Shown here piece by piece: positions 34,671-59,104 of a stretch of DNA of 64,000 nucleotides; the stretch's first letter is position 1; every line of letters begins with the position of its first letter. The position numbers and the translations under genes are program-made. The DNA is taken from positions 96,001 to 160,000 of IMG/VR virus record IMGVR_UViG_3300027782_000030, one strand, 5' to 3'. Below the pieces are notes generated by a model that saw only the letters and a list, made by a program, of their open reading frames with translations, was not told the origin of the DNA and did not search any database. This stretch comes from a virus. Taxonomy: Duplodnaviria; Caudoviricetes.

Positions 34671-35866
34671 ATTTCTACCTTAGGAAAATATTTTAAGAAA
34701 ATGTCTTGCTCAATATTACGCACAGTTTTAATTCTTTTACTAATCTCTGTAAAAAAGTTCCAAGCCAATGGCATAAACACAAGCCGATCATTTGAACTAA
34801 ACTCTTTGATAGCATCAGGTCCTTTTATAAGAATATTTGTTCCTGGCGTATACAAATTATGCTTTAATGGGTTGTCATCTATAATCAAATCTAACTTCAT
34901 ATCTAAGAAATTCAATAGTGTATTACCTTTTGCGGCTGCACCGTAGCCAATTATTTTATAGCCGTTAAACTTATAGGACTCTATAGTACGCTTTAACTCG
35001 TCCATATTACTTTTGACATTTTTTTCCCATATAGTATACGTTTTTATGTTTAGTAAGGCTTTCTCTGTTTTGATTTTGTCATCGATGGTCGATGAATCAT
35101 CCTTAGTACTTAATATGAATAAGTAACTGTTACCGTGTACAGGAGTTTTGATAGCGTCAATCAAGTATAGCCCTGCTCTTTTGGCTAACTCATACAGACT
35201 GTTGATATTAAAGAAATTAATATGCTCATGGTATATAGTATCAAACTCATTATTCAGAACCATATCTGCTTGACTAGTCTGAATGAATAATAGTGTATGG
35301 TCACGCATCAACTTTTTACAAGTTTGTAAGAATTCTAGTGGGTTAGGATTATGTGCAAAAACATTTTGGGCAGTTATAGCATCAAATTCATATTTAATTT
35401 TATCTACCACATCAGGACCAAAAAAGTCACATATGACATTATGTTTTGCTGAACTAGTAGGATATATATTTTCTGCTGGATCTACACCAAACGTGTTAAA
35501 CCCTCTAGACTTGAAAGAATCTAATTGAGTTCCGTCATTGCATCCAATATCTAATACATTGGATGTTTGTTTGTTTAGTTTTTCAATGACATAATTAGCA
35601 AACCATTCGCTATAATCTTTTAGGGTTTTGCTAGTACCGCTTACATACAAGTAGTTTTTATAGATTGTTTTTGGATCAACCGTATGAGTTAATTGAAGAT
35701 GATAGCAGATTCTGCATAAATTTACTGCTAGAGGATACCGATCTTCAATCCCATCTTTAAGATTGAGATAACTGTTAGCCAATGGTTGAATACCTAGGTC
35801 AAGCGCCAATGACAAATTTTTATTACCACACGCTAAACACGCATGATTGTATTCTATTTTACTCAT
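34658..35866 (-). CDS. NDP-sugar C-methyltransferase (Zn-binding N-domain, SAM domain, C-terminal Methyltransf_14-like domain)
   Basis: CLACG...LDLGIQPLAN...CRIC; VLDIGCNDG; QNVFAH; IYHEH; GYGAAAKGNTLLN. Confidence 0.85.
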   Translation of the reverse strand: MSKIEYNHACLACGNKNLSLALDLGIQPLANSYLNLKDGIEDRYPLAVNLCRICYHLQLTHTVDPKTIYKNYLYVSGTSKTLKDYSEWFANYVIEKLNKQTSNVLDIGCNDGTQLDSFKSRGFNTFGVDPAENIYPTSSAKHNVICDFFGPDVVDKIKYEFDAITAQNVFAHNPNPLEFLQTCKKLMRDHTLLFIQTSQADMVLNNEFDTIYHEHINFFNINSLYELAKRAGLYLIDAIKTPVHGNSYLFILSTKDDSSTIDDKIKTEKALLNIKTYTIWEKNVKSNMDELKRTIESYKFNGYKIIGYGAAAKGNTLLNFLDMKLDLIIDDNPLKHNLYTPGTNILIKGPDAIKEFSSNDRLVFMPLAWNFFTEISKRIKTVRNIEQDIFLKYFPKVEICQN

Positions 35867-36764
35867 ATGGTATGAACTGGTTTCTATTGCTAAAGGTTGT
35901 CTGATCTATCTTAGATACAATATCATTGACAATTGAGTCAATAGTCTCTTTAAACTGAAAGTTATAAGTATGCTTAAATTTTTGAGTGTTCATAATAAAA
36001 TCATAAACGCCTGTTACGCTAGGTTGTATTTTTATATTTGAAGTAGTTAAACTACTAACCATTAGGCTAATGTTATCAACAGTGTCATAGAAGCTAGCCA
36101 AGTTGTATATTCCAACTTTTGGATTCTGTAGTACACTATTAACTGCAAGACCAATATCAGCGATACCCAATATTGGTCTTGTTATTTCTTTATTATTAAT
36201 AAAAATGGTACCCAACTCAATTGATTTTTTAGTCATTGAATTAATCATTAGGTCTTCCCGCATGTTTGGACTCCATCCATTCACTGTTCCAAATCTAAAT
36301 CCAATTATATTATACCCATCTTGAATAAACTTTAGTGCATGTGTATCAAGCGTGTATTTGGTTAGATCATAGTTGTTTATGGGTTTAAATAGCAAGTTAT
36401 TATCTTCGCTCGTTTCTTTGGCAGAGTTACCGTACACACTTCCGCTGCTTGCATAAATCAATGTTTGTTTTTTGTCAATCATTGATACCAAATTGACAAA
36501 GTTATTAACATTGTTGTTAAAACTTGAAGTAATATCGCCGTTACACATATTCACTGAACTATGACCGGCAAGTAGAATTATGGCATCAAACTTACCTAGG
36601 AATTCTTTGGAAAGAGTATTGTAATCCTGTGTAATACTAGTACCTAGATTTCTTTCAAACCAACAAAGGTCAACACTCTGCATTTGGTATTGATATTGAA
36701 GGTCATGTATTAGTCTAGATCCTATATATCCATTGCCTCCCAAAATTAAGACTGTTTTAGCCAT
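35859..36764 (-). CDS. NAD-dependent NDP-sugar epimerase/dehydratase (extended SDR)
   Basis: GGNGYIG; YASSGSVYG; YDLTK (YxxxK). Confidence 0.85.
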   Translation of the reverse strand: MAKTVLILGGNGYIGSRLIHDLQYQYQMQSVDLCWFERNLGTSITQDYNTLSKEFLGKFDAIILLAGHSSVNMCNGDITSSFNNNVNNFVNLVSMIDKKQTLIYASSGSVYGNSAKETSEDNNLLFKPINNYDLTKYTLDTHALKFIQDGYNIIGFRFGTVNGWSPNMREDLMINSMTKKSIELGTIFINNKEITRPILGIADIGLAVNSVLQNPKVGIYNLASFYDTVDNISLMVSSLTTSNIKIQPSVTGVYDFIMNTQKFKHTYNFQFKETIDSIVNDIVSKIDQTTFSNRNQFIPYE

Positions 36765-36771
36765 TGTGATT

Positions 36772-36803
36772 TATTTATATGGTAATATAGTCTACAATAA
36801 ATA
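36772..36803. promoter_or_regulatory. Back-to-back T4-type late-promoter motifs driving divergent genes
   Basis: TATAAATA on the - strand at 36772-36779, 7 nt from the ATG at 36764. AATAAATA on the + strand at 36796-36803, 5 nt from the ATG at 36809. Confidence 0.6.
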
Positions 36804-37951: not shown

Positions 37952-37953
37952 CT

Positions 37954-38763
37954 ATGACAGATTTATCTAACATTGATTTTGGTAAATATAAACGCTTCTT
38001 TGCGTTTGGATGCAGTTTTACTTCATATCATTGGCCTACTTGGGCTGATGTATTAGCATCTGAAATGCCTAATGCTGAATTTTACAATTTTGGACATTGC
38101 GGTGGTGGTAATTCAATGATATCTAATCGCATTGCTGAAGCAAATTGTAGATATAAATTTACCGATACTGATTTAGTTGTGCCGATGTGGACTACATTTT
38201 GTAGAGAAGATAGGTATAGAACTGGTCAATGGATGAGTACTGGTAATATGTTTAGCCAAAATGAATTTGATGAAGAATTTGTGAGAAAATATTGCGACCC
38301 AATTGGATATTTGTTAAGAGATTTAGCAATAATTACTGTTACAAGTACCTATCTTAAATCCTTGCCTTCTGATTCATTCATGTTAAATGGAGTACCTTAT
38401 ACTTATCAAATGGATATTGAAACCGCACCATATCCAAAATTAAAAGAAATTTTGGAATTATATAAAGACACTATTAGCTTAACTCCACCTGCATTAGTTG
38501 ATTTAGAATTAGGAGGTGAATTTAAACACGGTCATGAATACTCAAGGATGCATAATGGTGATTGGTACTTAGACTATCATCCAAACACATTGCATTATAA
38601 TGGATACCTTAAAAAAATAGGTCTACCGTTAACATCTAAATCTTCAATGTATACAGAACATTCAATGACATTGTTAAAATCAACTAAAACAGAAGCACAA
38701 TTGATCATCGCCTTTAATAAAATGGTTGACGATAGAAATACAAAATTAAAAAATCTTTTTTGA
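37954..38763 (+). CDS. SGNH-like protein
   Basis: FAFGCSFT...W...NFGHCGGGN...DYHP. Confidence 0.55.
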   Translation: MTDLSNIDFGKYKRFFAFGCSFTSYHWPTWADVLASEMPNAEFYNFGHCGGGNSMISNRIAEANCRYKFTDTDLVVPMWTTFCREDRYRTGQWMSTGNMFSQNEFDEEFVRKYCDPIGYLLRDLAIITVTSTYLKSLPSDSFMLNGVPYTYQMDIETAPYPKLKEILELYKDTISLTPPALVDLELGGEFKHGHEYSRMHNGDWYLDYHPNTLHYNGYLKKIGLPLTSKSSMYTEHSMTLLKSTKTEAQLIIAFNKMVDDRNTKLKNLF

Positions 38764-38777
38764 ACTTAGGAATATTA

Positions 38778-41132
38778 ATGAAAAAAGTAACAATGATTGG
38801 AGTAGGCAAATTAGGACAAGACTGTGCTGAGGTAATGGCAGACGCGGGCTATGATGTAATCGGTTATGATATAGAACCTAGGTCACCTAAGTTTCCTATG
38901 ATGAATACTATTAAAGAAGCAGTCATTGACCGTGATATTATTTTTATTGCTGCACCAACACCACATGATCCTATATACGGCGGTGAAACTCCTACTAGTC
39001 ATTTACCTAATAAAGACTTTAATTATAATATAGTAATCAATATACTCAATGAGGTAAACATATTCGTTAATAAAAAGCAACTAGTTGTACTTATAAGCAC
39101 CGTGTTACCCGGGACAGTTCGTAATCATTTAGAACCTTGTATTACTAACGCTAGATTCATTTACAACCCATACTTGATTGCAATGGGCACGGTCAAATGG
39201 GACATGGTAAACCCTGAAATGATTATCATTGGAACAGAAGATGGTAGTATTACAGGTGATGCACAAGAGTTGATTGATTTTTATAATGTGTTTATGAATA
39301 ATAATCCTAGGTACGAAGTAGGTACTTGGGATGAAGCAGAATCAATAAAGATTTTTTATAATACTTTTATTAGTACTAAGTTAGCACTAGTGAATATGGT
39401 TCAAGACGTAGCCGAAACAAACGGCAACATTAATGTAGACATTGTTACCAAAGCATTAGCAAATAGTACACAGCGTATTATGGGCCCTGCATATATGCAA
39501 GCTGGCTTAGGAGATGCAGGAGCGTGTCATCCTAGAGATAATATTGCATTAAGGTATTTAGCCGATAGATTAGACTTGGGCTATGATCTGTTTGATTGCA
39601 TAATGACCGCTAGAGAAGTACAAGCAGAGCGTATGGCACTCAGATGTTTAAAGAATGGTAAGAACGTCACTATTATCGGTAAAGCATATAAACCTAAAGT
39701 ACCTTACACAAATGGTAGCGCTAGCATGTTGGTCGGTTATTATATTGAAAAACATGGAGGCTATATTAATTATTACGATGAAAATACAGGTGATTTAGAT
39801 TTAAAAACAGAATGGACTGAAGTATATTTAATTGGATATTGGGAAGATTGGGTGCATCATGCATTAAATAATATTCCATGTGATTATAGGTCAGTAGTTA
39901 TAATTGATCCATGGAGGAAGATTTCTGACCATAATGCATCTTATAAGTTTGAAACTATCGAATACGGTAACACTAGACCAAAAAATATATATGGGGTAGA
40001 AAACTCTCAATATCTAATTTATCAAACCGGTCATTTAAAGAATTTGTTTGGGTTATGGCCTGAAATGGAAAAACATAAAGATATTATTCATCTCATTGAT
40101 GCTGAATCAGGTCTAACAAAATTTCATTTGAGACCCACGGAATTGATTGTAGAAGAAATATTAGAGGCTTCTAAGAATGGAAAAATTAAATTTTTATTTA
40201 ATAATTTAGCTGAAGGATATCAAATTCCAGCAGTAGACAAAATTCACCGCATTGCAAATATATTAGAAAATCAAATTGATTCCAAGAATCTTATATATTT
40301 GACATCTTCGCCCGGAGTAGAACAAATATATGAAGATTTGTTTTCCAGTAAAAAGAATAAAAATTGGAAAAATAAAATTTCAATATTGTCTGCCCATGCT
40401 TTTCATTTATATACTCAGTGGAGTATGTTAGAGCTTAAAGAGTTAACTAATTATATAATTAAAGAAAAATCTAAAGATTTTTTATGTTTCAACAAAGTTC
40501 CTCGTGAGCATCGAATCAGACTACTTAATAGAGTGCTAGAGCATAATATGCTAGATAAAGGTTATTATTCGTTTGAAGGGTTACCAAATTGGTTAGACTT
40601 TTTACCCGAAGAATTCAACAGCATCAAATTAAATGAAAATAAATTTCCAATAAAATTAAATATAACCCCTGAAAGACCAAATCCGTTAATGGTAGAAGTT
40701 CAGGATCTTAAATATTTTGATGATAGTTATTTTAGTATAGTTACCGAAACAACTTTTTATAATAATGACCATCCGCGTATTGTTAGATATGGGACCTTAG
40801 ATAATATTTTTATTACTGAAAAGACTTTTAAATGTTTTCCTGCAATGCACCCGTTCATTGTATTTGCTTATCCTAATTTATTATCTGAATTAAGAAAACT
40901 TGGGTATAAAACGTTTGCACCCTTTATAGATGAATCATATGATACTATTATCAATGATGATGATAGATTTGAAGCAATATGGAAAGAAATAACTAGATTA
41001 TTACATAAAACACCTGAAGAATGGATTCAATGGCAATCTGGCATCAAAGAAATCGTTGAATTTAATAAAAATCATTTTTATTCAAATACAAATTATTCTT
41101 CTACCCCTATTGACGATATTTTTGGAGACTAA
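38778..41132 (+). CDS. UDP-glucose/GDP-mannose dehydrogenase family protein fused to a C-terminal GT-like domain (copy 3)
   Basis: GVGKLG Rossmann motif, AAPTP, STVLPGT, YNPY, IKIFYNTF, and GLGDAGACHPRD (catalytic Cys). The C-terminal half carries SYFSIVTET...TEKTFK...HPFI...DESYD. The start is likely the ATG at 38778, after AGGA. Confidence 0.8.
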   Translation: MKKVTMIGVGKLGQDCAEVMADAGYDVIGYDIEPRSPKFPMMNTIKEAVIDRDIIFIAAPTPHDPIYGGETPTSHLPNKDFNYNIVINILNEVNIFVNKKQLVVLISTVLPGTVRNHLEPCITNARFIYNPYLIAMGTVKWDMVNPEMIIIGTEDGSITGDAQELIDFYNVFMNNNPRYEVGTWDEAESIKIFYNTFISTKLALVNMVQDVAETNGNINVDIVTKALANSTQRIMGPAYMQAGLGDAGACHPRDNIALRYLADRLDLGYDLFDCIMTAREVQAERMALRCLKNGKNVTIIGKAYKPKVPYTNGSASMLVGYYIEKHGGYINYYDENTGDLDLKTEWTEVYLIGYWEDWVHHALNNIPCDYRSVVIIDPWRKISDHNASYKFETIEYGNTRPKNIYGVENSQYLIYQTGHLKNLFGLWPEMEKHKDIIHLIDAESGLTKFHLRPTELIVEEILEASKNGKIKFLFNNLAEGYQIPAVDKIHRIANILENQIDSKNLIYLTSSPGVEQIYEDLFSSKKNKNWKNKISILSAHAFHLYTQWSMLELKELTNYIIKEKSKDFLCFNKVPREHRIRLLNRVLEHNMLDKGYYSFEGLPNWLDFLPEEFNSIKLNENKFPIKLNITPERPNPLMVEVQDLKYFDDSYFSIVTETTFYNNDHPRIVRYGTLDNIFITEKTFKCFPAMHPFIVFAYPNLLSELRKLGYKTFAPFIDESYDTIINDDDRFEAIWKEITRLLHKTPEEWIQWQSGIKEIVEFNKNHFYSNTNYSSTPIDDIFGD

Positions 41133-41135
41133 TAA

Positions 41136-43385
41136 TTGGATTTTAACCTAACGTCATTAGCAGTAGATAAGTTAGTTCCTAAAGAACGGCCTACAGAAGA
41201 TATTGCCGATGCCCGACATCGTAATATGATGGAGGCTATAGCGCCCTATGCAAAGAAAACAGAACAAAAAAATCTAACACCTGTATATGTTAATTATAAA
41301 ACCCGCAATACTAAATTAGTATTGGTATTATGTCCTGAATGGAGTCCGTATATGCCGCCCTTTAGTCTAGCTAGACTAAGTGGTATAGCAAAAAGTGCAG
41401 GATATGAAACTACTATTATGGATTTGAATGTTAGAGCCTATAACGAATATCGTAACGATTGGCAACCTAATAAAAAACTCCCATTCAGACTATGGGATCC
41501 TAGTAGCAGTTGGCACTGGCTAGGCGAGACTTATATGAATGATATTCATCCCGTATTAGAGCCTGTACTTAGTAAAGCAATAGATGATATAGTTGAACTA
41601 AATCCTGAAGTAGTTGGCTTTAGTATATATTATATTAGTGAAGAGCCAACTAAGTGGATGTGTAAAGAACTCAAACGTAGACTGCCCAATGTAAAAATTG
41701 CAGTAGGTGGACCCAACGTACACAAGAGTTGGTTTAAAGTAGAACCATATTATGATTATGCAGTTGTGGGTGAAGGTGAGGCAAACTTATTAGTATTACT
41801 TGAAGAAGTAGAAAACGGTATCAACCACAGTGAACCTAAGATTCTAGATCAACCCGAAGAGCAGCGTATCAACATAAATGGCTTGCCTATGCCAGACTAT
41901 GAGTCTATAGATTTTAGTCAATATGAATTGCCTAACGGAGTAAACACAGAAATTAGTAGGGGCTGTACAGCAAAATGTACTTTTTGCGAAGAGACACATT
42001 TTTGGCGATATCGTCAGCGTCAATCTGTTGATTTGATTACGGAAATCGAATGGCTATACTATAATAAGGGTACAGATGTTGTTTGGTTCATTGATAGTTT
42101 AGTCAATGGCAACTTAAAAGAGTTGAGGGCTTTTGTCAAAGGAGTCGCCGCTAAAGGTCTTAAGATTAAGTGGACAGGATATGCCCGCTGTGACGGCCGA
42201 ATGGATCTAGAATACATGAAAGATTTAGCTGCCGGTGGTTGTATCATGTTTAACTATGGGATAGAATCCGGTAGTCAAAAAGTATTGGACGATATGGCTA
42301 AAGGCGTCACGATTGCAGAGATGGAACAAAACTTCATCGATGGTAAAAAGGTGGGTATATGGGCTGCTACAAACTGGATTGTAGGATTCCCCACTGAAAA
42401 TTTTCAAGACTATGCCGATAGCATGACACTACTATGGCGTATGCGTAATAATAATATTAATAACGCCGGCTTGGGAGTAGGTTATGGCTTGGGCCCAGAA
42501 ACTATAGTAGGTCAAAACCCGCATAAATTTAATATTAGTTGGCACAAGTATCAAGGACATTGGATTACAAAAGACTTGACAATGGGTGGAACTCATGTAA
42601 TGACTAGAGTAAAAACTTTTCACATGTTTGCCGATTTTATACAGGGGTGTAGTGAAGTCCCGATTAGTTATCCAGTGAGACACGGTTTAGCAAGAGAACA
42701 TTATAAAATAGAATTGAATGATCCTAAGTGTATCAAAGAAATTGAATATGAAAAATTTGATTATAATATTATTAAAGTAGATATTAATCCATTTGCTAAT
42801 ACATTAGTAAATGAAATGTGGCCATTCTTTCGAATGCTTTGGAAAACTAGAGGTGGATATAAAGCTGTAGTGAAATTTCATCCTGACATTGATTTAAAAG
42901 AGTTTGGCAGTCAGTTTGGACCCGGCATGTATTATGCTACTTATAAGTTTGATATCACGGATGACGGCAAGTGGGATGCCGATTTTGATATTATTTTTAA
43001 TCAAGTAGATAATATATTTGACGATAGAGAACGTCCGCCTCTAGGTAGAAAAGGTCCTTTTTACGCACAAGACTATAGTAGAATTCAAGCTAATACAGCC
43101 AAACGTGCCCGTAAATTAGCAAAGCCAACATGGAGCGATGAAGAAGGTAGAGATGGACAAGATTTTACAGACTTGTTAAATGAAGAACAAATGTTAAATG
43201 AAACTATTGACTTCTCATTTAAGCTACATTGGGTTGAGTCAGGTGATTGGGGCAACTATGCCGACTATGAAGTTAAAGTTTCTAATACTACTATCGTTGT
43301 GATTCCTGAAAAGAAAGCAATGTCGGCTACAGAATTTGCTACAATTGACGTAACATCTATTAAAAAACGTGAACCCAATACTTGA
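41136..43385 (+). CDS. Cobalamin-binding radical SAM enzyme (class B methyltransferase-like)
   Basis: N-terminal B12-binding-like segment (PPFSLARL...DLN...VVGFS...VGGP); EISRGCTAKCTFC; YGIESGSQKVL; WIVGFPTE. TTG start. Confidence 0.85.
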   Translation: MDFNLTSLAVDKLVPKERPTEDIADARHRNMMEAIAPYAKKTEQKNLTPVYVNYKTRNTKLVLVLCPEWSPYMPPFSLARLSGIAKSAGYETTIMDLNVRAYNEYRNDWQPNKKLPFRLWDPSSSWHWLGETYMNDIHPVLEPVLSKAIDDIVELNPEVVGFSIYYISEEPTKWMCKELKRRLPNVKIAVGGPNVHKSWFKVEPYYDYAVVGEGEANLLVLLEEVENGINHSEPKILDQPEEQRININGLPMPDYESIDFSQYELPNGVNTEISRGCTAKCTFCEETHFWRYRQRQSVDLITEIEWLYYNKGTDVVWFIDSLVNGNLKELRAFVKGVAAKGLKIKWTGYARCDGRMDLEYMKDLAAGGCIMFNYGIESGSQKVLDDMAKGVTIAEMEQNFIDGKKVGIWAATNWIVGFPTENFQDYADSMTLLWRMRNNNINNAGLGVGYGLGPETIVGQNPHKFNISWHKYQGHWITKDLTMGGTHVMTRVKTFHMFADFIQGCSEVPISYPVRHGLAREHYKIELNDPKCIKEIEYEKFDYNIIKVDINPFANTLVNEMWPFFRMLWKTRGGYKAVVKFHPDIDLKEFGSQFGPGMYYATYKFDITDDGKWDADFDIIFNQVDNIFDDRERPPLGRKGPFYAQDYSRIQANTAKRARKLAKPTWSDEEGRDGQDFTDLLNEEQMLNETIDFSFKLHWVESGDWGNYADYEVKVSNTTIVVIPEKKAMSATEFATIDVTSIKKREPNT

Positions 43386-43953
43386 GTTTGAAACGGTTAT
43401 AAAAGAATATTATAACAGCCCATATGCGGTTACAACTGATTGTTGTACCCACGCTATTGAACTATGTATTAGGTTATTAAAGCCAACTGAGGTATCATGT
43501 CCAAAACACACCTACCTAAGTGTTCCAATGACATTTGAAAAATTAAATCTAGATTGGAGATTTAAAAATTTTAAATGGAATGATTATTATTATATAACTA
43601 ATAATATTATTGATGCGGCAGTATATTGGAAGCCCGATGGATATATCCCTAATACATATATGTGCTTGTCATTTCAATTTAAAAAGCATTTAAATGTGGG
43701 TAGAGGTGGCATGATATTAACCGACGATTATGAATCTTATAAAAAATTAAAAAAGATGAGTTATGATGGTAGGCTTCCCGATATTGCATGGGCTGAACAA
43801 GACGTAGACACATTGGGTTATCATTATTATATGACACCTGAAACTGCTGAGTTGGGTTTAGATAGATTTCACGAAGTAAAGGACATTGAACCTAGACAAT
43901 GGTCTTGGAAAGACTATCCCGACTTAACAACAATGAGTGTATTCAAATGCTAA
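43369..43953 (+). CDS. DegT/DnrJ/EryC1/StrS-family PLP aminotransferase (short form)
   Basis: AVTTDCCTHA; IDAA; LSFQFKKHL.VGRGGMILTDD (PLP Lys region); GYHYYM. It is only 194 aa. Confidence 0.8.
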   Translation: MNPILEFETVIKEYYNSPYAVTTDCCTHAIELCIRLLKPTEVSCPKHTYLSVPMTFEKLNLDWRFKNFKWNDYYYITNNIIDAAVYWKPDGYIPNTYMCLSFQFKKHLNVGRGGMILTDDYESYKKLKKMSYDGRLPDIAWAEQDVDTLGYHYYMTPETAELGLDRFHEVKDIEPRQWSWKDYPDLTTMSVFKC

Positions 43954-44909
43954 GTAAAAACGAGTGGGATCCACTTAAAACCGTGATTGTTGGTATAGCA
44001 GATAATGCTACTAGACCAATTATATCTACAAGCGTTAGGACTGTTAACTATGCTGATGTAAAAGATGTGAGTACGATTGAATGTGGTCCATATCCTGTAC
44101 AAGTCATAGAAGAAGCGAATCAGGATTTAGAAACACTAAGTGATTTTCTTAAGAAAGAAAACATTAAGGTATTACGCCCTGAAGCAAATCATCCTAGGTA
44201 TTATAACTATTGCCCAAGAGATACGGTATTAATACATGATGAATTAGTATTGGCTACACCAACTGCACTAAGTGAACGACGCCATGAATGGACTAGTTCT
44301 GCGAAGCATTTAAATATAGTTACAGTAGCACCTATACCAAATGATGATATAATTTATAATACTGAATGTATAGGTAATCCTGATATTTTAGCATTAAATG
44401 AAATAGATCCTTGTTTTGATGCTGCTAATATTATTAGAGCAAATGAAGACCTTTATTATCTAGTTAGTAATACTGGTAATAAAAAAGGTGCAGAATACTT
44501 AAGGTCATTGGGCAAAACTGTACATACTATTGAAAACGTATATAGTTATATTCATATTGATAGTACTATTGCATTTTTGCGTGAGGGTTTAATGTTGTTA
44601 AACCCAAAAAGAATTACGAATGTCAAAGAACAATTACCCAAATCATTGCATAATTGGGATATAATATGGGCTACTGAGCCAATAGATATTGGACATTACC
44701 CCGGTATATGCAATGCTAGTGTTTGGATAAATGTAAATTTGTTATCTATCAATCCTAACTTAGTAGTTCTAGAAGAACACCAACACAATTTACGAATAGA
44801 ATTAGAAAAATACGGTATTGAATCAGCAATGTTACCAATGCGTCATGCTAGAACATTAGGTGGTTGTTTTCACTGTGTGACATTAGATTTAGTTAGAGAT
44901 GATAAATGA
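43947..44909 (+). CDS. Amidinotransferase (glycine / scyllo-inosamine-phosphate amidinotransferase family)
   Basis: NEWDPLK.VIVG; CPRD; FDAAN; HIDST; GGCFHCVTLD (catalytic Cys). The start is likely 43947 rather than 43899. Confidence 0.88.
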   Translation: MLSKNEWDPLKTVIVGIADNATRPIISTSVRTVNYADVKDVSTIECGPYPVQVIEEANQDLETLSDFLKKENIKVLRPEANHPRYYNYCPRDTVLIHDELVLATPTALSERRHEWTSSAKHLNIVTVAPIPNDDIIYNTECIGNPDILALNEIDPCFDAANIIRANEDLYYLVSNTGNKKGAEYLRSLGKTVHTIENVYSYIHIDSTIAFLREGLMLLNPKRITNVKEQLPKSLHNWDIIWATEPIDIGHYPGICNASVWINVNLLSINPNLVVLEEHQHNLRIELEKYGIESAMLPMRHARTLGGCFHCVTLDLVRDDK

Positions 44910-46627
44910 GTAAATGGCGTCGAGGACATGTTGGTAGATTTTGGTATACTGAAGAGGTTAAAAATCTTAATTATACTAAACAACCTATAACTCAAGATGA
45001 AGTTGACCAATGGGTATCTAAAGGTTATGATTACGTAAAGAGCTTTACGGGCAGCATGTATGATAATAAAAACCCAATGCCTGAATTTATTAATAGACTT
45101 AAAGATATCTTTTACAACTATAAAAATCTTACGTTTACTTTTTATAAAATGAGTACATTGGAAATTATGCCTGAGCATTCTGATCACTATAATACATATA
45201 TGAAATTATATGGGGCAGATTACAAAAATGTACACCGCATCTTATTAATGTTAGAAGATTGGAAACCCGGGCATTACTTGGAAATAGATGGCACTGGTAT
45301 TATTAATTGGGTAGCAGGTGATTACTTTATTTGGGAAAATGATTGCAAACATGCTGCTGCTAATATAGGTGTAGAAGATAGATATACTTTACAGATTACG
45401 GCTGAAATACTTAGCGACAACTCAACTGACTATAAACTACATTGGTATAATATTCCTGATAGAGAATCAAAAACCGAATCATCTCAATACTATATGAATA
45501 GGGTACTAAACGGAGTAACTGATAATATAAGAAATGAACCATTGTATATTTACATGCTTAATCAACAAATTGTTGAACTAGAAACAATAATACATGATCA
45601 AAGTACAGTACAGTATTTAAATGAAAAGGGTATTACATTTTATCTAACAGAACCATTATGCGGCTATACAAGATTACCTAGGAAACATACACTATCAATT
45701 TATTCAGAATTTAAAGGTGATGAAGATTCTTCTGCTTTACGGGCAGACGAGTTAGATAGCATTAAAGAATATGTTATCAGAAATAAATTAACTAATGTTA
45801 ATGTTTATACATGTGATTATGACGCTAAAACATATTATCCTTACTATAAATCTTTTATGAATATAGAAACAGATGATTTGTTTATTAGAACCATACCACA
45901 AAAAACAGTATTCCATACCAATGTCAAAGCTGCTTTTAATAAAAAATTTATTTGTTTAAATTGGAGATTTACTCCTCATAGGCAATTATTAGCCGCATAC
46001 TTGTCTCAAAAATCTAGCACTATTAGTTGGTATTTTAGGGGAGATTTGCCTGTTGTAGGGCACTATAATTGGATTAGTATTTTTTCACTTAGAGACCCTA
46101 AATATTTTAATACTTTAATAGATGGCATCACATATCTAAATGCTAACGCACCTCTGAGTGTTGACTTACCTGATGTAGAATCTATCTCTTTATATGATAC
46201 TGCTCATGGCGAATTTATTCCTAATAGTCAAATACTGAATAATAGTTCCAATGAGATAATAGAAAATGCTTATTTGAATGTGTTTTGTGATATAGTTACT
46301 GAGTCTAGATTCGCTCAGCCAACTGGTAACTTTAGCGAAAAGGTATTTCACCCTATATGGTATAAAAAGCCTTTCGTATTGGCAGCGCCTCCTCATACAC
46401 TAAAATATTTAAAAGAAGAAGGGTATAAAACCTTCAATGAATTTTGGGATGAAAGTTATGATGACTGTGAAAATCATGAAGAAAGATTAATGAAAATATT
46501 TGATGTAATAGATTTCATTGATAGTAAATCTATAGACGAATTGCGTGAAATGTATGAGCAAATGAAGCCAATACTAAAACATAATTATGATTTAATAAAG
46601 CAAAAACTGCCCACAGTAGAAAAGTAA
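44906..46627 (+). CDS. 2OG-Fe(II) oxygenase domain fused to a GT-like domain (copy 4)
   Basis: N-terminal PEHSDH (HxD)...HAAAN...RYTLQIT; C-terminal DIVTESRF...SEKVF.P...KPFV...GYKTF...DESYD. Confidence 0.7.
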   Translation: MSKWRRGHVGRFWYTEEVKNLNYTKQPITQDEVDQWVSKGYDYVKSFTGSMYDNKNPMPEFINRLKDIFYNYKNLTFTFYKMSTLEIMPEHSDHYNTYMKLYGADYKNVHRILLMLEDWKPGHYLEIDGTGIINWVAGDYFIWENDCKHAAANIGVEDRYTLQITAEILSDNSTDYKLHWYNIPDRESKTESSQYYMNRVLNGVTDNIRNEPLYIYMLNQQIVELETIIHDQSTVQYLNEKGITFYLTEPLCGYTRLPRKHTLSIYSEFKGDEDSSALRADELDSIKEYVIRNKLTNVNVYTCDYDAKTYYPYYKSFMNIETDDLFIRTIPQKTVFHTNVKAAFNKKFICLNWRFTPHRQLLAAYLSQKSSTISWYFRGDLPVVGHYNWISIFSLRDPKYFNTLIDGITYLNANAPLSVDLPDVESISLYDTAHGEFIPNSQILNNSSNEIIENAYLNVFCDIVTESRFAQPTGNFSEKVFHPIWYKKPFVLAAPPHTLKYLKEEGYKTFNEFWDESYDDCENHEERLMKIFDVIDFIDSKSIDELREMYEQMKPILKHNYDLIKQKLPTVEK

Positions 46628-46648
46628 ATACTTATAAGGAGCACATTT

Positions 46649-46747
46649 ATGTTTATATTTAAATGGATTAAGAATATTATCCGAGAATACAAATACCGTA
46701 AAAGAATTAAAGAATTACGCAAACGGGATCCTTTCATATACAAATGA
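46649..46747 (+). CDS. 32-aa basic peptide (not in ORF track), coupled to the carbamoyltransferase
   Basis: TAAATA and SD AAGGAG lie upstream. It reads MFIFKWIKNIIREYKYRKRIKELRKRDPFIYK, with an ATGA overlap to 46744. Confidence 0.75.
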   Translation: MFIFKWIKNIIREYKYRKRIKELRKRDPFIYK

Positions 46748-48225
46748 ACTATGTAGGCATATCAGCAGGGTTTCATGACGCTGCAATCAGTGTAATAGAC
46801 AATGCAGGCAACCTATTATTTGCTGGGCATAGTGAACGTTATAGTAAGAAAAAACACGATAAAGACTTATGTGAAGAATTATTAGCCGACGCATTAAGTT
46901 ACTGTAATTCAGAATCATTAGAGTATCACTACTACGAAAGACCTTGGTTGAAAGCACTTAGACAGGTGCGTAGTGGTGAGGGTTTTGTTTGGCCAAGTTG
47001 GAAAAACTTATTAGGTCCCATCTATAATCAAATGGGTAAACCAAAGATACATGTACATGGTCATCATCTATGCCATGCAGCAGCAGGATTTCAAACCAGT
47101 CCTTATAGTGACGCCACAGTTGTAATAATTGACGCTATAGGTGAGTTTGACACTATGACGATTTGGGATGCTAGATATGACCTTATAACTGGCAAGGCTA
47201 CCTATGAGAAACTATGGAGTATGCAATATCCAAACAGTGTTGGATTATTTTATTCAGCAATGACTGAGCGAGTCGGGTTGCGTCCACTAGATGAAGAATA
47301 TATTCTTATGGGCATGGCTGCATATGGTCATCCTCATCATGTTGATGATATGTTTGATGCGTTAATAGATGATGATGACATATTGACCTTTAAGCAGAAT
47401 TTACATGTTGGGGTAAGTAAAGAATTTTTGAAAAACGCCAAAGATACAGACATTGCCAGCAGTAGTCAAAATATAGTAGAATATATGATTACTCTAGTTG
47501 TTAGTAAGGCCAAAAGTCTAGGTAGAAGTAGAAATCTAGTCTACGGTGGTGGGGTGGCATTGAATTGTTTAGCAAATAGATTATTAGGAAATATATATGA
47601 AAATATTTGGATTATGCCGAACCCTGGTGATGCAGGTAATAGCCTTGGTGCAGCATGTCTTGGCTATGGCACTAAACTTAATTGGAGTAATGCTTTTCTT
47701 GGGCATGATATTACTGGGGATTATCCTGTTCATCGGTTACTTGATGTTCTACTTACTGATCGGATGGTTGGTGTTGCGTCCGGTAGGGCAGAATTCGGAC
47801 CGCGGGCCTTAGGTAATCGTAGTCTGTTGGCAGATCCTCGCGGAGATGATATCAAAGACAGAGTAAATGAGATTAAGCGTAGACAAAAGTTTAGACCATT
47901 TGCTCCTATTATTCTTGAGGAATATGTGCATGATTATTTTGACATGCCAAGGTCTTGGAAAAATAGTAGATACATGCAAGTAATTGCTAACTGTAAATTT
48001 CCTGATCGGTTTCCTGCTATCGCTCATGCCGACAAAACTAGCAGAGTACAAACTGTACCAAAAGATGGCTCGGGTATTAGAGAGTTATTAGAGAAATGGT
48101 ATGTAATAACCGAATGTCCTATGTTGTTGAATACTAGTCTAAACATTCGTGGCGAGCCAATGGTCAATGACAGGGCCGATGCTGACAGATTTGAAAAACT
48201 GTATGGGGTTAAAGTTCTGTCATAA
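46744..48225 (+). CDS. O-carbamoyltransferase (NodU/CmcH/TobZ family)
   Basis: GISAGFHDAA; HHLCHAA; DAIGE; GGVALNC; PGDAG; EFGPRALGNRS; FRPFAP; LNTSLN. Confidence 0.9.
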   Translation: MNYVGISAGFHDAAISVIDNAGNLLFAGHSERYSKKKHDKDLCEELLADALSYCNSESLEYHYYERPWLKALRQVRSGEGFVWPSWKNLLGPIYNQMGKPKIHVHGHHLCHAAAGFQTSPYSDATVVIIDAIGEFDTMTIWDARYDLITGKATYEKLWSMQYPNSVGLFYSAMTERVGLRPLDEEYILMGMAAYGHPHHVDDMFDALIDDDDILTFKQNLHVGVSKEFLKNAKDTDIASSSQNIVEYMITLVVSKAKSLGRSRNLVYGGGVALNCLANRLLGNIYENIWIMPNPGDAGNSLGAACLGYGTKLNWSNAFLGHDITGDYPVHRLLDVLLTDRMVGVASGRAEFGPRALGNRSLLADPRGDDIKDRVNEIKRRQKFRPFAPIILEEYVHDYFDMPRSWKNSRYMQVIANCKFPDRFPAIAHADKTSRVQTVPKDGSGIRELLEKWYVITECPMLLNTSLNIRGEPMVNDRADADRFEKLYGVKVLS

Positions 48226-48236
48226 GTAACTACATC

Positions 48237-51200
48237 ATGAGAGATGTATTTTATTACGGTAAAAAACCCAACGTTCACCCAAAAGAAAAATTTGCGACTT
48301 CAATAGAAGATGCCAGGAGTCAATGTACCACTGAACATTTTTGGATAATCAATGAATACTGTGATTATCGCAATCTAGATTGGGACTTTGATTTTGAATT
48401 CTTACCCGATGAAGATGTATGGGCAGAAGACCATAACAATGTATGGCCCAGCCAACATCAAAAAGACAGTGGCACTTGGCTATGTCCAAAGAAAAACAGT
48501 GATATAATTATCTATCGTGCTGATGTTGACCCTGTTATTCGTAAGAATATAAAGAATGACAATTGGGTAATATTATATGAAATTGATGAAATTAACTTTG
48601 ATTTTAGTTGGCATCCTGATCCAACTGATCCTTCCTATACTTATGTATGGGGTAACCAATGGCACTCTGGTAAGATTATGCCTACGGTTAAATATTCCGT
48701 ACTTGGTTCGTTAGAAGTAAAATATATTGAAAATAATATTGCGATATTAGCACAATTGCCTGAAAACTTTGATATTTTTGAAGAAGTTGAGAATTTTGAT
48801 TTTAGTTGGCATCCTAATCCAACTAGTCCTCCTTACATATATGTTTGGGGTAATCAATGGAATATCCCTCAGGACAAAATATCTATTCAATATAAAGTTG
48901 ATGGTGCGACCGAACATAATTATATGGCCGAACGTGCGATTCGTAAACCATGTACAGGTAATTGGATAATACCTGATAATGTTGATACAATTGGGTTTGA
49001 CTTTAGTTGGGAACCTAGCCCAGCGGATCAACCTTATATTTACCAATTTGGCACTCAGTGGCAAAAGACAGGTGGTCCACAATATTTAACACCAGGCGTA
49101 CATAAAAATAGTGACATTAAGTATATTGATTTGCAAAAAGTAAAAATATTGCCTAATAAAGATAACTTTATTATCTTAGACAATATTATTGTAGATGATT
49201 TTGATTATAGTTGGCATTCTGATGAAACAGAAGAACCATACATATACGTATTTGGTAATAATTTATATGCGGCTGAAATTATGCCAACTATCCAGTACGT
49301 ACCTAAAAACGCAGTTAGATTAACATCAGGTAAACCAATTGAACAAATAAAATATGTCAATGACTTAGTTGCTAAATTAGGAGAGAATAGAAATAATTGG
49401 GTTATTCATCAGCCAATAGATGAAATTAAATTTGATTTTAGTTGGGTGCCTAATCCTAAAGATCCCCCTTACATATATGTTTGGGGTAACAAATATATTT
49501 CAAACATATATAAACCAACGGTTGAATATATAGTTGAAGGTGCAACTGAAATAAAATACATGGATGACAGTGTTGCTGTATTACCCGAGCTTGATCGATG
49601 GTATATACCAAATAATATTGATGATACTGGTTTTGATTACACATGGAGACCTGATCCATTAGAACCTGTATTAATTTGGCAATTTGGCACTCAGTGGCAG
49701 AAGACAGGTGGACCTAGATATACCATGCCTAGCGCTATTGAAATCAAATATATTGACAGTCAAAAAGTAAAAGCACTGCCTAACAAAAATTGGACTATAC
49801 CTAAAAATATTGATGTATCTGAATTTGATTTTAGTTGGCACCCAGATGACACTTCACCTTCTTACATATATAGATTTCCTACACAGTGGGCAATGAGTGG
49901 TGGTCCAATTTACACTGTAGTTGGAGCAACAGAAGTAAAGTATATAGATATCTTTAGGGCTAAAGCGCTACCTAATACAGACAATTGGGAATTCGATTCT
50001 AACAATATTGATTCGTCTATCTTTGATTTTAGTTGGCACCCATATGCTGAAGATGAGCCTTTCATATATCAATTTGGTACTCAATGGCAAAAGACAGGTG
50101 GTCCTAGATATTTAACTCCAGGAGTTCATAAAAATAGTCCTGTAAAATATATTGATACACGAATTATAAAAGCAAAAAGATTGCCGAACAAAAATAATTT
50201 TGTTATTTTAGATGACAATGTTATATCTGATTTTGATTATAGTTGGCATCATGATGATACTGAAGAACTTTTTATATATGTATTTGGTAACAATTTATAT
50301 TCTGCTGAAATTATGCCAACTATCCAGTACGTACCTAAAAACGCAGTTAGATTAACATCAGGTAAACCAATTGAACAAATAAAATATGTTAATGACTTAG
50401 TTGCCAAGTTAGGAGAAAATAGAAATAATTGGGTAATATATCAACCAATAGATGAATCTAAATTTGATTTTAGCTGGGTCCCCAATCCCAAAGACCCAGC
50501 TTACATATACTGTTGGGGTAACAAATTTATTTCCAATGTATATAAACCAACCATTGAATATATAGTTGAAGGTGCAACTGAAATCAAATACATGGATGAC
50601 AATGTTGTAGTAGTACCTGAAAGCGATCGGTGGTATATACCAAGTAATATTGATGATACTGGCTTTGACTATACATGGAGACCTAATCCATTAGAACCTG
50701 ATTTAATTTGGCAGTTTGGTACTCAATGGCAAAAAACCGGCGGCCCAAGATATATTATGCCCGGTGCTATTGAAGTCAAATATATTGACAGTCAAAAAGT
50801 AAAAGCACTTTCTAATAAAAATTGGACTATACCTGAAAATATAGATGTGTCTGAATTTGATTTTAGTTGGCATCCAGATGATACAAGTCCACCGTATATT
50901 TATAGATTCCCAACTCAATGGGCAATAAGCGGCGGACCTAATTATATAGTTGAAGGTGCTACTGAAATAAAATATATTGATAAGCTTAAGGCTAAAGCAC
51001 TTCCTTGTAAAGATTATTGGGATTTTAATTCTGCTATAGTTGATGAAAATAGTTTTGATTTTAGTTGGCATCCATATGCAGAAGACGAGCCTTTTATATA
51101 TCAATTTGGAACACAATGGCAGAAAACAGGTGGTCCTAGATATTTAACTCCAGGTGTTCATAAAAACAGTCCCATAAAATATATCGATACACGAATTATT

Positions 51201-54200
51201 AAATCAAAAAGATTGCCAAACAAAAATAATTTTATTATCATTGATAATAACATAATTGACAGTTTTGATTGGTCATGGCACCCTGATGAAACAGAAGAGC
51301 CATTTGTTTATATATTTGGTAATAATCAGTACTCGGCTGAGATAATGCCAACTATAAAATATGTTGTAGAAGGTGCTGCTGAAATAAAATATGTTAACGA
51401 TATAATTGCTACTTTAGGTGAAAACAAAACCTATTGGGAAATGCCTGAAGGTGTGAATATTATCAACTTTGATTTTAGTTGGGTACCTAACCCTAAAGAC
51501 CCTGCTTACATATATGAATTTGGTACTCAATGGAATGATAGAGGAGGACCAAAATATGTTCCTCCTAATAAAGGGCTTAGATTAGCATCAGGTAAACTTA
51601 TCGGTCAATATAAGTATGTCAGTGATCAAATTGCTACAGTAGGGGAAAATAAAACAAATTGGATCATACCTAATAATATTGACATTACAGGTTTTGATTT
51701 TAGTTGGGTCCCACATCCCGATGATCCGCCATATGTATATGAATTTGGTACCCAATGGCAGCAGACAGGAGGGCCCAAGTATATAGTTGAGAATGCTACT
51801 GAAGTTAAATATGTAGATATATTTAAAGTTAGAATGTTACCCAATAGTGATAATTGGGAAGTACCTGATAATATAGATAGCACTAAATTTGATTTTAGCT
51901 GGCATCCAAATTCAACTGAAGAACCCTACACATATAAATTTGGAACTCAGTGGCAAAAGACTGGAGGTCCTAGTTATTTAACACCTGGTATTCATAAAAA
52001 CAGTCCGATAAAATATATTGATAATCAAGTACTTAGTAGTATTAGATTACCCAACAAAGACAATTTTACTATATTAGATAATATTATTGTTGCTGATTTT
52101 GATTACAGTTGGCACCCTGACGAAACTGAAGAGCCGTATGTGTACGTATTTGGTAATAATTATTATCCAGCTGAGATAATGCCAACTATTCAATATGTAC
52201 CCGAAAATGTAGTCAGAGCAGCATCAGGGATACCAATTGAGCCAATTAAATATGTTAATAATGTGGTTGCAACATTAGGACAAAATAAAACTAATTGGAT
52301 AGTACATCAGCCGATAGATGAAAGTAAGTTTGATTTCAGTTGGGTACCTAATCCCAAAGATCCTCCTTATATCTATGTTTGGGGTAACAAGTATATTTCA
52401 AACATATATAAACCTACATTGGAATATGTTCCTTCTGAAATTCCTAGACTAGCAACAGGTAAACCAATTGGTCAAATTAAGTATATGGATGATGACGTTG
52501 AAGTTCTTCCCGAATGGGATAATTGGATTATACCTGAAGATATAGATAAAAATAGTTTTGATTTTACATGGAGACCTGATCCACGTGAGCCTGATTTTAT
52601 ATATCAATTTGGTACACAACATCAAAAAACAGGTGGTCCTCAGTATATTACCTTAGGTATCCCTAGACTAGCAACAGGAAAACCAATTGGCGGTCAAGTT
52701 AAATATGTTGATGGTATAAAGGCTAAAAAGCTACCTAATAAAACTAATTGGACTAATCCTAGCAAAGCGGATGTTAGTACATTTGATTTCAGTTGGCACC
52801 CGGACGATACGTCACCTCCTTACATATATCAATTTGGTACATTATTAGATAGAGAAGATGGACCTAGGTATATGACTCCAAAGACTAATGGAGTGATTGT
52901 TTATTTGGAAAAAGTTGAAAAAGAAATTGAGGAAGTTATAGAAGAATTGGTACGAGGTGATTTCCCTAAATATTATATTTCTACTACCCTTGAAGATTTG
53001 GTAAAAGAACACCCAAATGAAATGTTTTGGGCATTAAATCCTAATTTAGATTATAGTGATTTTGATTTTGATTGGAGACCTAATATTGACCGATCACAGT
53101 ATGAATCAGAATATGTTCATGTGTTTGGATCTAGTGAAAGTGAAAAAACACAGACATATCTAGTTAATAGTATAATGTGGGAGAAAGGTTTTAGAGAATT
53201 AAATTGGGTCGTTGACAAAAAACTTGATGATGTAACATTATTTAAAATGTTCAAAAAATCCGATATGTTCTTTGTAGATAGAAGTAACCTAGAATCTCAC
53301 GCAAGATTTGAACAACTTAAAGTTAAATTTCCTAATATACAAAAGACAAGATACCTAAATAGTTGGGTTGATACTATTAATCGTTGTATAAATCGTGCAA
53401 GTAGTAATTTATGTTGGATATTAAACAGTGAATTAGATTATAGTAATTTTGATTTTGATTATTATCCTAATCCTTGGCAAATGAAAATGGTCCATGTATT
53501 TGGAACACAATGGAGTCATTGGGGGTCAACATTCATGGTCAACCGAGAATCATTTGCTGAAGATACTAAATGGATTAAAATTATAGAGCATTTAAGTAAT
53601 CTTAACTTTGTAAAAGATAGAATTGCTATAGCTGATAACAATGTATATGACATATATGTTGTAGACCACGGTAATAAAGAAACAGCCACTGTGGTTGATC
53701 AATTGACTAATAAAGCGTGTGGTAAATCAGTTAATACTATTAAATATACCGAAAATTATTTACTTACATTTAGAAATCTATTAAGACAATTACCTGAAAA
53801 GAAAGAACATTATATTTGGTTATGTAGTAGCATATGTGACTATAGTAATTTTGACTTTAGTTATATATGCGATCCTTTTGCCCGTGAGCAATTGCATGTA
53901 TTTCCTAGTGATACTCAAAAATTAGGTGATACCTTTTTAGTTAATATTAATAAGTTTCGTGAATTAATTAATAATATGACTTTATTAAATGAATATAATA
54001 AAATCAATTATAATCAACATCAAAAAGTTAAAAGATTAGAACCGCCCACTATTATTACTAATTACGATTCTCATGTATTAAGTGTAATGGAAGACTTTGA
54101 TTTCCCATATGCTGTGTTTTTATCTGAAGATAATAAAGATTTAAAAGTCAATGACGAAGAGCCGATTAGTTTATGGAGCAGTGACACTAAAAACATTGTT

Positions 54201-59017: not shown

Positions 59018-59020
59018 TCA

Positions 59021-59045
59021 AAGGGGAGGCAACTCCCCTTTTTTC
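59021..59045 (+). terminator. Intrinsic terminator
   Basis: AAGGGGAG-GCAA-CTCCCCTT followed by TTTT. Confidence 0.8.
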
Positions 59046-59047
59046 AT

Positions 59048-59076
59048 TTGCAATTAAATACGGTATATGTTACAAT
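59048..59076 (+). promoter_or_regulatory. sigma70-type promoter (extended -10)
   Basis: TTGCAA-17 nt-TACAAT with TG at 59068-59069; TAAATA in the spacer. Confidence 0.65.
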
Positions 59077-59104
59077 ATAGCATATATACGATAAAGGAGT
59101 AGGT

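Follow-up and report, generated by a model that had tools for sequence, protein, structure and literature searches.

Enzymes of the kinds considered here are known from several described pathways. In the streptidine system the DegT-family aminotransferase StsC acts ahead of the amidinotransferase StrB1 (1BWD). In the route to UDP-4-amino-4-deoxy-L-arabinose (Ara4N), Ugd, ArnA and ArnB work in series, while the carbamoyltransferases TobZ, NovN, GdmN and NodU combine a Kae1-like with a YrdC-like domain. We analysed a 64,000-nucleotide window of phage DNA (bases 96001-160000 of the 200,570-bp IMG/VR virus record IMGVR_UViG_3300027782_000030, for which CheckV estimates 58% completeness). Within it, six intact forward-strand open reading frames (ORFs) at 41136-48225, separated by short gaps or overlapping, encode a B12-binding radical S-adenosylmethionine (SAM) enzyme, an aminotransferase, an amidinotransferase, an Fe(II)/2-oxoglutarate (2OG) oxygenase fused to a second domain (here termed X), a 32-aa peptide and an O-carbamoyltransferase. 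An earlier note on this DNA had listed these six genes and read them as a route to a guanidino- and possibly carbamoyl-modified sugar or cyclitol, with putative effects on virion charge or host defence. The list was right: the ORFs are real and tightly packed, and their families were confirmed, apart from the second half of the fusion. The best reading of the run, which we hold with about even confidence, is a route to a guanidino-sugar, in which the stretch would be the tailoring branch of a phage-encoded glycan pathway lying in a late operon (36809-54986).

The core of the run consists of three features (coordinates are those of the window):

43369..43953, + strand: minimal DegT-family pyridoxal phosphate (PLP) aminotransferase, 194 aa, large domain only (PF01041, 57.4 bits)
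43947..44909, + strand: amidinotransferase of the StrB1/AGAT family, 320 aa (phmmer match to 1BWD over the full length, E 9.4e-54)
44906..45430, + strand: Fe(II)/2OG oxygenase domain, the N-terminal ~170 aa of a 573-aa fusion (VIA-align Z 13.5)

The amidinotransferase begins at the second ATG of an ORF that opens at 43899. Over residues 3-318 phmmer matched it to StrB1, followed by HsvA (E 2.5e-31), human AGAT (~1e-28) and SxtG (1.9e-24), so that StrB1 is its nearest relative among solved structures. The Asp/His/Cys catalytic set is identical to that of StrB1: D92 (in PRD), D158 (FDAAN), H203 and D205 (HIDST) and C310 (FHC) align between the two, are invariant in 21 phage sequences, and correspond to D170, D254, H303, D305 and C407 of AGAT. 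The phage enzyme differs from StrB1 in being 28 aa shorter, with trimmed loops, and in belonging to a clade of its own with sequences from Bdellovibrio. A database search returned 5620 clusters of such amidinotransferases.

The aminotransferase scored well above the cut-off of the DegT_DnrJ_EryC1 profile (19.8 bits), but aligned only to profile positions 23-90 and 166-240. The label 'DegT' given to it in the earlier note is right as to family, but what is present is a half-size, one-domain form (mini-DegT). D82 (in IIDAA), S101-F-Q-x-x-K106 and R112-G-G are invariant in 33 sequences; K106 is the PLP lysine, and D82 the aspartate that contacts the pyridine nitrogen. The AlphaFold2 model (pLDDT 95.4) has six strands of at least three residues and a further short bridge, which we read as a predicted fold-type I large-domain sheet. 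The best 50 Foldseek matches in the PDB were all DegT-family proteins (TM by query 0.65-0.78), each aligned over only some 40% of its length (TM by target 0.32-0.42). Most are sugar aminotransferases, including GDP-perosamine synthase, ArnB, AtmS13 and CalS13, alongside relatives such as BtrR and AHBA synthase. The two-domain architecture of about 360-400 aa found in the family is not seen here: the protein lacks both the C-terminal small domain and the N-terminal arm. We considered whether the short protein is a frameshift product or a fragment, and rejected this: its length is 194-200 aa in the majority of the 61 related viral loci where the gene occurs, and its database family is equally short (at least 8000 clusters match, and among the matches listed almost all are ~195 aa). 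We regard mini-DegT as a genuine minimal enzyme, and not as debris.

The oxygenase domain was not singled out in the earlier note, yet it is the third fixed member of the run. Its AlphaFold2 model (pLDDT 90) has the double-stranded beta-helix fold and matched 2OG oxygenases, of the prolyl-hydroxylase type and others, with VIA-align Z scores of 13.5-12 (at Z 13.5, rmsd 3.2 and 154 residues aligned). The H91-x-D93...H149 iron triad and the 2OG-binding R159 are conserved in 21-22 of 22 homologues, and the Pfam model Asp_Arg_Hydrox fell just under its cut-off (21.5 vs 22.6 bits).

An IMG/VR scan with the amidinotransferase found 66 viral loci (56-84% identity). The proteins of the window were mapped onto these loci, all ORFs were clustered, and the loci were dereplicated to 35 groups, with the following distribution:

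Amidinotransferase: 35 of 35 groups
mini-DegT: 33 of 35 groups
X-domain family: 29 of 35 groups
B12 radical-SAM enzyme: 22 of 35 groups
Carbamoyltransferase: 18 of 35 groups

mini-DegT usually lies directly upstream of the amidinotransferase, with stop and start overlapping. The oxygenase domain is present in 65 of the 66 loci, either fused to X or as a free gene of 163-176 aa that abuts the amidinotransferase. The fixed unit is thus the oxygenase, mini-DegT and the amidinotransferase; the two other enzymes, the B12 radical-SAM protein and the carbamoyltransferase, are optional additions of particular lineages. Co-occurrence, which had been proposed as a check on the whole run, holds for the mini-DegT and amidinotransferase pair but only in part for the other two enzymes. 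With matches of this strength and conservation across 66 viral loci, the run lies far beyond chance. In several relatives a 282-aa SAM-dependent methyltransferase (Cons_hypoth95/MTS-like) is encoded between mini-DegT and the amidinotransferase (L005, at 6805-7650, and the equivalent gaps of ~840 nt in L008-L012, L025, L052 and L063). The insertion suggests that the amine or the guanidine may be N-methylated.

The trio is also found in a cultured T4-like phage, Synechococcus phage S-SCSM2R (PQ898602.1; 244 kb), as ORF305 ("AHBA synthase", 195 aa), ORF308 (2OG oxygenase) and ORF309 ("inosamine amidinotransferase", 56% identical), among five annotated glycosyltransferases. Neither the B12 radical-SAM enzyme nor the carbamoyltransferase nor the peptide is encoded at that locus, and its oxygenase is free-standing, unlike the one in the window. 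The core trio in the cultured pair of Synechococcus WH7803 and S-SCSM2R makes the question of its product directly testable.

In a scan of one genome per prokaryotic species, 329 relatives of the amidinotransferase were found, none above 46% identity. A maximum-likelihood tree placed the phage enzymes in one clade (support 100/100), with two Pseudobdellovibrionaceae sequences as nearest neighbours (100/97). Only the loci of those two bacteria (L070 and L071) also hold mini-DegT (42-49% identity), UDP-glucose/GDP-mannose dehydrogenase (UGDH), short-chain dehydrogenase/reductase (SDR), X-domain and N-twitch radical-SAM genes; two other Bdellovibrionota loci have oxygenase-like and X domains. The module is accordingly a distinct subfamily that T4-like phages have in common with these predatory bacteria. 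The isolate Bdellovibrio sp. HCB2-146 has the cluster between housekeeping genes in a 2.2-Mb contig, in the order UGDH, SDR, mini-DegT; further radical-SAM genes, a polysaccharide lyase and another UGDH/SDR pair come after it. A 161-aa ORF downstream of mini-DegT in Bdellovibrio was considered as a counterpart of the oxygenase domain, which it is not. The HCB2-146 island as a whole (L071/L151, contig 1, ~1.858-1.880 Mb) has at least six radical-SAM genes, and also a fatty-acid hydroxylase.

What argues for a sugar as the substrate is, besides the sugar-aminotransferase fold matches of mini-DegT, the company that the trio keeps. In 27 of the 35 groups (28 if a UGDH fusion in locus L031 is counted) a UGDH or an SDR dehydratase/epimerase gene is found no more than 10 kb from the amidinotransferase; for UGDH itself the figure is 22 (23 with that fusion). 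Loci of the smallest kind (L024 type) have a GDP_Man_Dehyd-type SDR two genes away from the trio. The sugar half of the earlier proposal of a guanidino sugar or cyclitol thus gains from these neighbours, while the cyclitol is disfavoured, as shown below. In the window, the neighbouring sugar genes are:

38760..41132, + strand: UGDH fused to an X domain, 790 aa (PF03721, PF00984; TIGR03026 6e-38)
35859..36764, - strand: extended-SDR enzyme, like NDP-sugar epimerases/dehydratases (NDP, nucleoside diphosphate; PF01370 1e-19)
34658-35866, adjoining the SDR gene: sugar C-methyltransferase (Methyltransf_14, Methyltransf_13, Methyltransf_23)

A host nucleotide sugar probably enters the pathway through the UGDH-X fusion. 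UGDH, SDR and a DegT transaminase in series resemble the Ugd-ArnA-ArnB route to UDP-4-amino-4-deoxy-L-arabinose, whose order recurs in the Bdellovibrio relatives and whose transaminase, ArnB, is among the best fold matches of mini-DegT. Unlike that route, no formyltransferase, ArnC or ArnT was seen, and in the module an amidinotransferase comes after the transaminase. By analogy, an Ara4N-type pathway may be suggested.

From these observations we infer a scheme, including all its substrates, the order of its steps, arginine as the donor and the destination of the product. A host nucleotide sugar would be converted to a keto-sugar, starting in this phage from UGDH and in other lineages from an SDR of the NDP-sugar 4,6-dehydratase type. 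The 2OG oxygenase would either make the keto group or hydroxylate a neighbouring position, and mini-DegT would turn the keto group into an amine. The amidinotransferase would then pass the amidino group of L-arginine via Cys310, assisted by H203 and D158, to the new amine, giving a guanidino-sugar and ornithine. Glycosyltransferase-like X domains, one of them fused to the oxygenase, would build the sugar into a glycan. Further decorations would be added, in this phage and in about half of the lineages overall, by the B12 radical-SAM enzyme and the TobZ-type O-carbamoyltransferase with its peptide. The likeliest destination would be a virion or fibre-associated protein.

A more specific version of this scheme is tentative, and we think it somewhat improbable as a whole. 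According to it, a portable trio in T4-like phages and Bdellovibrio-like predators puts a guanidinium at a sugar hydroxyl or keto position of a virion glycan, and the 32-aa peptide is an obligate subunit, or a substrate-presenting partner, of the trimmed O-carbamoyltransferase. We know of no natural guanidino-sugars described in glycoconjugates. If the guanidino-sugar route is right, phages make cationic guanidino-sugars, a chemistry so far known only from aminocyclitol antibiotics, and their late, structure-linked use could change the contact of the virion with negatively charged host surfaces. The enzymes themselves belong to known families; the novelty lies in the constant trio with its minimal aminotransferase, in the amidinotransferase clade of phages and Bdellovibrio, and in the strict pairing of peptide and carbamoyltransferase. 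The module is abundant, and the unusually small size of its enzymes (194 aa for the PLP aminotransferase, 320 aa for the amidinotransferase) makes them attractive for enzymology and glyco-engineering.

The placing of the run in a late operon draws on the phage and on the following features. Judged by the T4-type major capsid protein encoded in the record (Pfam Gp23, E 2.7e-98), the DNA comes from a large T4-like myovirus; the source is a lytic, giant, T4-like freshwater phage, with a GC content of ~33%.

36795..36803, + strand: T4-type late-promoter-like box CAATAAATA, directly ahead of the forward operon 36809-54986
36772-36779, - strand: mirror late box, preceding the divergent operon of the SDR and the C-methyltransferase
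48237..54986, + strand: 2249-aa protein, last gene of the forward operon, with at least 20 tandem repeats of 64-77 aa (FDFSW...PYIY...GTQW)

The two divergent boxes at 36772-36803 are separated by 18 nt. Their core, ATAAATA, is strongly depleted in the window (10 copies vs 55 expected, or five-fold), and eight of the ten are found in short intergenic regions upstream of genes. The sites are at 18732, 18736, 19519, 36772 (- strand), 36797, 56331, 56927 and 63859, with two more elsewhere. No copy occurs on the + strand between 36809 and 54986. Because the boxes flank the operon and none lies inside it on the coding strand, the tailoring genes are probably co-transcribed late with the 2249-aa protein. 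Scans for sigma-70 promoters and for terminators gave site counts that were not above those of shuffled sequence. Within the run, the 3' end of the B12 radical-SAM gene overlaps the next gene by 17 nt, the mini-DegT stop (43953) lies 7 nt beyond the amidinotransferase ATG (43947), and an ATGA at 44906-44909 joins the amidinotransferase stop to the start of the fusion gene; packing of this kind has the arrangement predicted for translational coupling.

Trp, Tyr and Pro are abundant in the 2249-aa protein, which consists largely of its repeats (consensus FDFSWxPxP..PYIYxFGTQWQKTGGP..KYID). Over the last ~230 aa it shows homology to a 316-aa protein at 23998-24948, and it lies downstream of the module in 47 of the 66 loci. 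It had no Pfam or PHROG match, and no collagen-like G-X-Y runs were found in the giant proteins. It may be the target or the scaffold of the glycan.

How far does the resemblance to streptidine biosynthesis go? In addition to the one-domain form of the aminotransferase and the oxygenase as a fixed third member, the phage system differs in that no cyclitol synthase, kinase or phosphatase partners were found for its enzymes. Cyclitol-forming genes, whether of the myo-inositol-phosphate synthase type (PF07994) or of the 2-deoxy-scyllo-inosose (DOI)/dehydroquinate (DHQ) synthase type (PF01761), are absent from the 200-kb record, and no sugar-1-phosphate nucleotidyltransferase was found there. This argues for host nucleotide sugars, and not a cyclitol, as the starting material. 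The streptidine logic that the earlier note had invoked is thus sound as chemistry, with StrB1 nearest and a DegT-family partner, but does not carry over to a cyclitol.

The same findings bear on the idea that the genes make a diffusible, aminocyclitol- or aminoglycoside-like metabolite. The trio of S-SCSM2R has been labelled "antibiotic synthesis genes", by annotation only (PMC12801897), and the list of relatives (StrB1, StsC-type aminotransferases, TobZ and class B radical-SAM methylases) is indeed one of aminoglycoside enzymes. We nevertheless regard such a metabolite as improbable. Apart from the missing cyclitol synthases, no export or self-resistance gene was found among the window ORFs scanned, five glycosyltransferase-like paralogues point to a polymer or conjugate, and the probable late co-transcription with the 2249-aa protein also counts against it.

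S-SCSM2R also carries (L152, 213353-216336) a second, distant 'glycine amidinotransferase' (ORF266) beside two 2OG oxygenases and KdsA/KdsB; those who described the phage found ORF266 and ORF269 in virion preparations purified with CsCl. The pairing of an amidinotransferase-like gene with a 2OG oxygenase may thus recur among phages. In Campylobacter phages of the CP220 type a distant amidinotransferase (25% identity) sits beside a radical-SAM gene. A literature search found no paper that assigns a product to the module.

A guanidino- or carbamoyl-bearing glycan could also be made for the host envelope (lipopolysaccharide, capsule or another surface polymer), where it would block superinfection or alter the surface of the lysing cell. 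The related clusters in Bdellovibrio-like chromosomes, where a cell-surface polymer would be the natural destination and where a polysaccharide lyase and a second UGDH/SDR pair adjoin one of them, speak for this, as does the order UGDH, SDR, DegT, which recalls the Ara4N pathway of lipid A. We consider it unlikely for the phage, which is lytic and T4-like, has late-type promoters ahead of the operon, and carries that operon between giant fibre-like genes; neither an initiating phosphoglycosyltransferase nor a Wzx-type flippase was found in the 200-kb record.

Several observations weigh against the guanidino-sugar route. Standard DegT enzymes use the C-terminal small domain and the N-terminal arm to help enclose the nucleotide-sugar. 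Because both are missing from mini-DegT, its active site is, on the model, probably more open, and the loss of the nucleotide-binding C-terminal domain may mean that its substrate is not a standard NDP-sugar. The amidinotransferase had no Pfam or NCBIfam match, and the Pfam amidinotransferase model stayed silent at E-values up to 10. Members of its family also accept glycine, lysine, polyamines and a saxitoxin precursor, so that similarity to StrB1 does not fix the acceptor. The SDR beside the operon of the window is present in only 3 of the 35 groups, absences within the 200-kb record are provisional at 58% completeness, and the glycosyltransferase nature of the X domain is weakly supported (see below).

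Some of this could instead mean that the acceptor is not a sugar at all, but a small amine (a polyamine or an amino acid) or a residue in a peptide or protein. For example, an oxygenase of the prolyl/aspartyl hydroxylase kind might hydroxylate a fibre protein, the glycosyltransferase-like domain might glycosylate it, as happens in collagen lysyl hydroxylase-glycosyltransferase fusions, and the amidinotransferase might convert amines of the lysine or ornithine type to guanidines. Among the best structural matches of the oxygenase are hydroxylases of prolyl, lysyl and aspartyl residues in proteins, the LH3/mimivirus lysyl hydroxylases among them, but the sugar-acting enzymes AviO1, EvdO2, HygX, PolD and PasI score about equally. 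HsvA, the second-best PDB match of the amidinotransferase, is a polyamine amidinotransferase, and the C-terminal domain missing from mini-DegT points to an open active site. The top NCBIfam match of the B12 radical-SAM enzyme is a C-methyltransferase family of ribosomally synthesised and post-translationally modified peptides, far below its cut-off; numerous twitch/SPASM radical-SAM enzymes are encoded upstream, and a giant repeat protein ends the operon. A DegT-family enzyme has, on the other hand, no obvious role in protein-residue chemistry, its best 50 fold matches are sugar, cyclitol or AHBA-type aminotransferases, and UGDH or SDR genes stand beside the trio in most lineages. We give a non-sugar acceptor a low but appreciable probability.

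The guanidino-sugar route calls for transferases that install the sugar, and the candidates are the X domains. The fusion gene spans 44906-46627 on the + strand, with the oxygenase at residues 1-169 and X at residues 177-573. Five X-domain copies are encoded in the window, either free or fused to UGDH, to the 2OG oxygenase or to a 383-aa protein at 55790:

45431..46627, + strand: X domain of the fusion, virus-restricted, alpha/beta (paralogy from tblastn and clustering)
32286-33515: X-domain paralogue
36809-37951: X-domain paralogue
40400-41132: X domain in the C-terminal half of the UGDH fusion (38760-41132)
56500-56941: X domain in the C-terminal part of 55790-56941

The domain is marked by the motifs KKFxxxNxRxRxHR and ET..F...SEKTFKPI..HPF. 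None of 36 members had a Pfam match, and a profile search found no PDB match. Foldseek and VIA searches with the model of the whole fusion, dominated by matches to the N-terminal domain, gave no named family for the X half, and nor did the Swiss-Prot models give a match. Clusters of the AlphaFold database matched uncharacterised proteins and one GT1 entry (E 5.6e-7, TM by hit 0.58), and an Atlas feature search returned GT10 at 0.79, as a lead only. A GT-B-like glycosyltransferase is therefore possible. Of the oxygenase-glycosyltransferase fusion named earlier, the 2OG oxygenase fold and its HxD...H motif stand, but the second half is only weakly glycosyltransferase-like. Human LH3 and mimivirus L230, both among the structural matches of the N-terminal domain, likewise carry a 2OG oxygenase and a transferase-like domain on one chain; their second domains have no sequence relation to X, and the likeness is one of architecture only. 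In locus L031, oxygenase, X domain and UGDH form one protein of 968 aa.

The optional part of the run comprises three genes:

41136..43385, + strand: B12-binding (class B) radical-SAM enzyme, 749 aa (PF02310, 42 bits; PF04055, 56 bits; both above cut-off)
46649..46747, + strand: basic peptide of 32 aa, conserved; ribosome-binding site AAGGAG, TGA overlapping the carbamoyltransferase ATG at 46744 (ATGA)
46744..48225, + strand: O-carbamoyltransferase of the NodU/CmcH/TobZ family, 493 aa (Carbam_trans_N, PF02543, 121 bits; Carbam_trans_C, PF16861, 158 bits)

The carbamoyltransferase exceeds the cut-offs of both domains (24 and 27 bits) by a wide margin. It matches phrog_1601 (1.7e-91), and its PDB relatives are NovN (1e-45), GdmN (1e-40) and TobZ (3e-33); the NodU equivalog cut-off was missed (131 vs 1000 bits). 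All solved relatives carbamoylate hydroxyls of sugars or polyketides. Like TobZ, NovN, GdmN and NodU it contains strong matches to both the Kae1-like and the YrdC-like domain, but it is 493 aa long, compared with 570-700 aa, and always occurs with the basic peptide, which has no known counterpart.

The small peptide is a real ORF, as the earlier note had it, with coordinates corrected to those given above. Its orthologues are 32-36 aa long and share the invariant tail YRKRxKELxKRDPFIY, with 15 invariant residues in the alignment. The motif [RK][RK]DPF[IVL]Y was found in all 26 loci with a carbamoyltransferase of ~495 aa and in none of the 40 others, which include three with a divergent, 567-aa carbamoyltransferase. 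In four loci (L013, L027, L053 and L059) the peptide is not directly upstream of the carbamoyltransferase but elsewhere in the operon. This placement favours a partner acting in trans, and a cis-acting leader or arrest peptide, which we also considered, is less likely given that the displaced ORF still co-occurs. No PFIY-type small ORF was found near the carbamoyltransferases of the bacterial loci L102 and L142. The PFIY tail resembles small DUF5989-type proteins encoded beside bacterial carbamoyltransferases, a tentative lead.

Phage carbamoyltransferases raise a further possibility, that the genes hypermodify phage DNA: the carbamoyltransferase would make 5-carbamoyloxymethylcytosine, and the aminotransferase and amidinotransferase would decorate the side chain of a base. 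Aminotransferases and radical-SAM enzymes do occur in pathways of thymidine hypermodification. A phage-encoded NodU-family enzyme of the same Pfam families, found by MetaGPA, carbamoylates 5-hydroxymethylcytosine in DNA and RNA (PMC8670742). That enzyme is paired with a dCMP hydroxymethylase, whereas the sole thymidylate-synthase-family gene of the 200-kb record is a canonical ThyA, and the neighbours here are nucleotide-sugar enzymes. In the same study, carbamoyltransferases on unmodified contigs adjoin glycosyltransferases (PMC8670742), as is the case here. We therefore rate DNA hypermodification as very improbable. The gene in question is:

62746-63600, + strand: canonical thymidylate synthase, the only PF00303 gene in the record (E 9e-88 to E. 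coli ThyA)

It also matches 1TIS, which we take to be T4 td, at 1.6e-78, and shows no sign of being a hydroxymethylase variant.

The B12 radical-SAM enzyme has a CTAKCTFC (CxxxCxxC) motif and an uncharacterised C-terminal extension of 316 aa. Its best NCBIfam matches are families of B12 radical-SAM methyltransferases, far below their cut-offs. It is probably a C-methylase; no named function is given to it, as no NCBIfam equivalog cut-off was reached.

Two further features lie outside the operon. At 3-18728 (+ strand) an ORF of more than 6241 aa, open at its 5' end, has abundant Thr, Val and Asn but little Lys or Cys; it probably encodes a giant fibre or adhesin, just upstream of tail-associated genes and the glycan cluster. 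At 57917-60388 (+ strand) the gene for a MoxR-type AAA ATPase precedes one for a DUF2201 metallopeptidase/VWA protein, and the same pair is found beside the amidinotransferase and oxygenase genes of locus L057.

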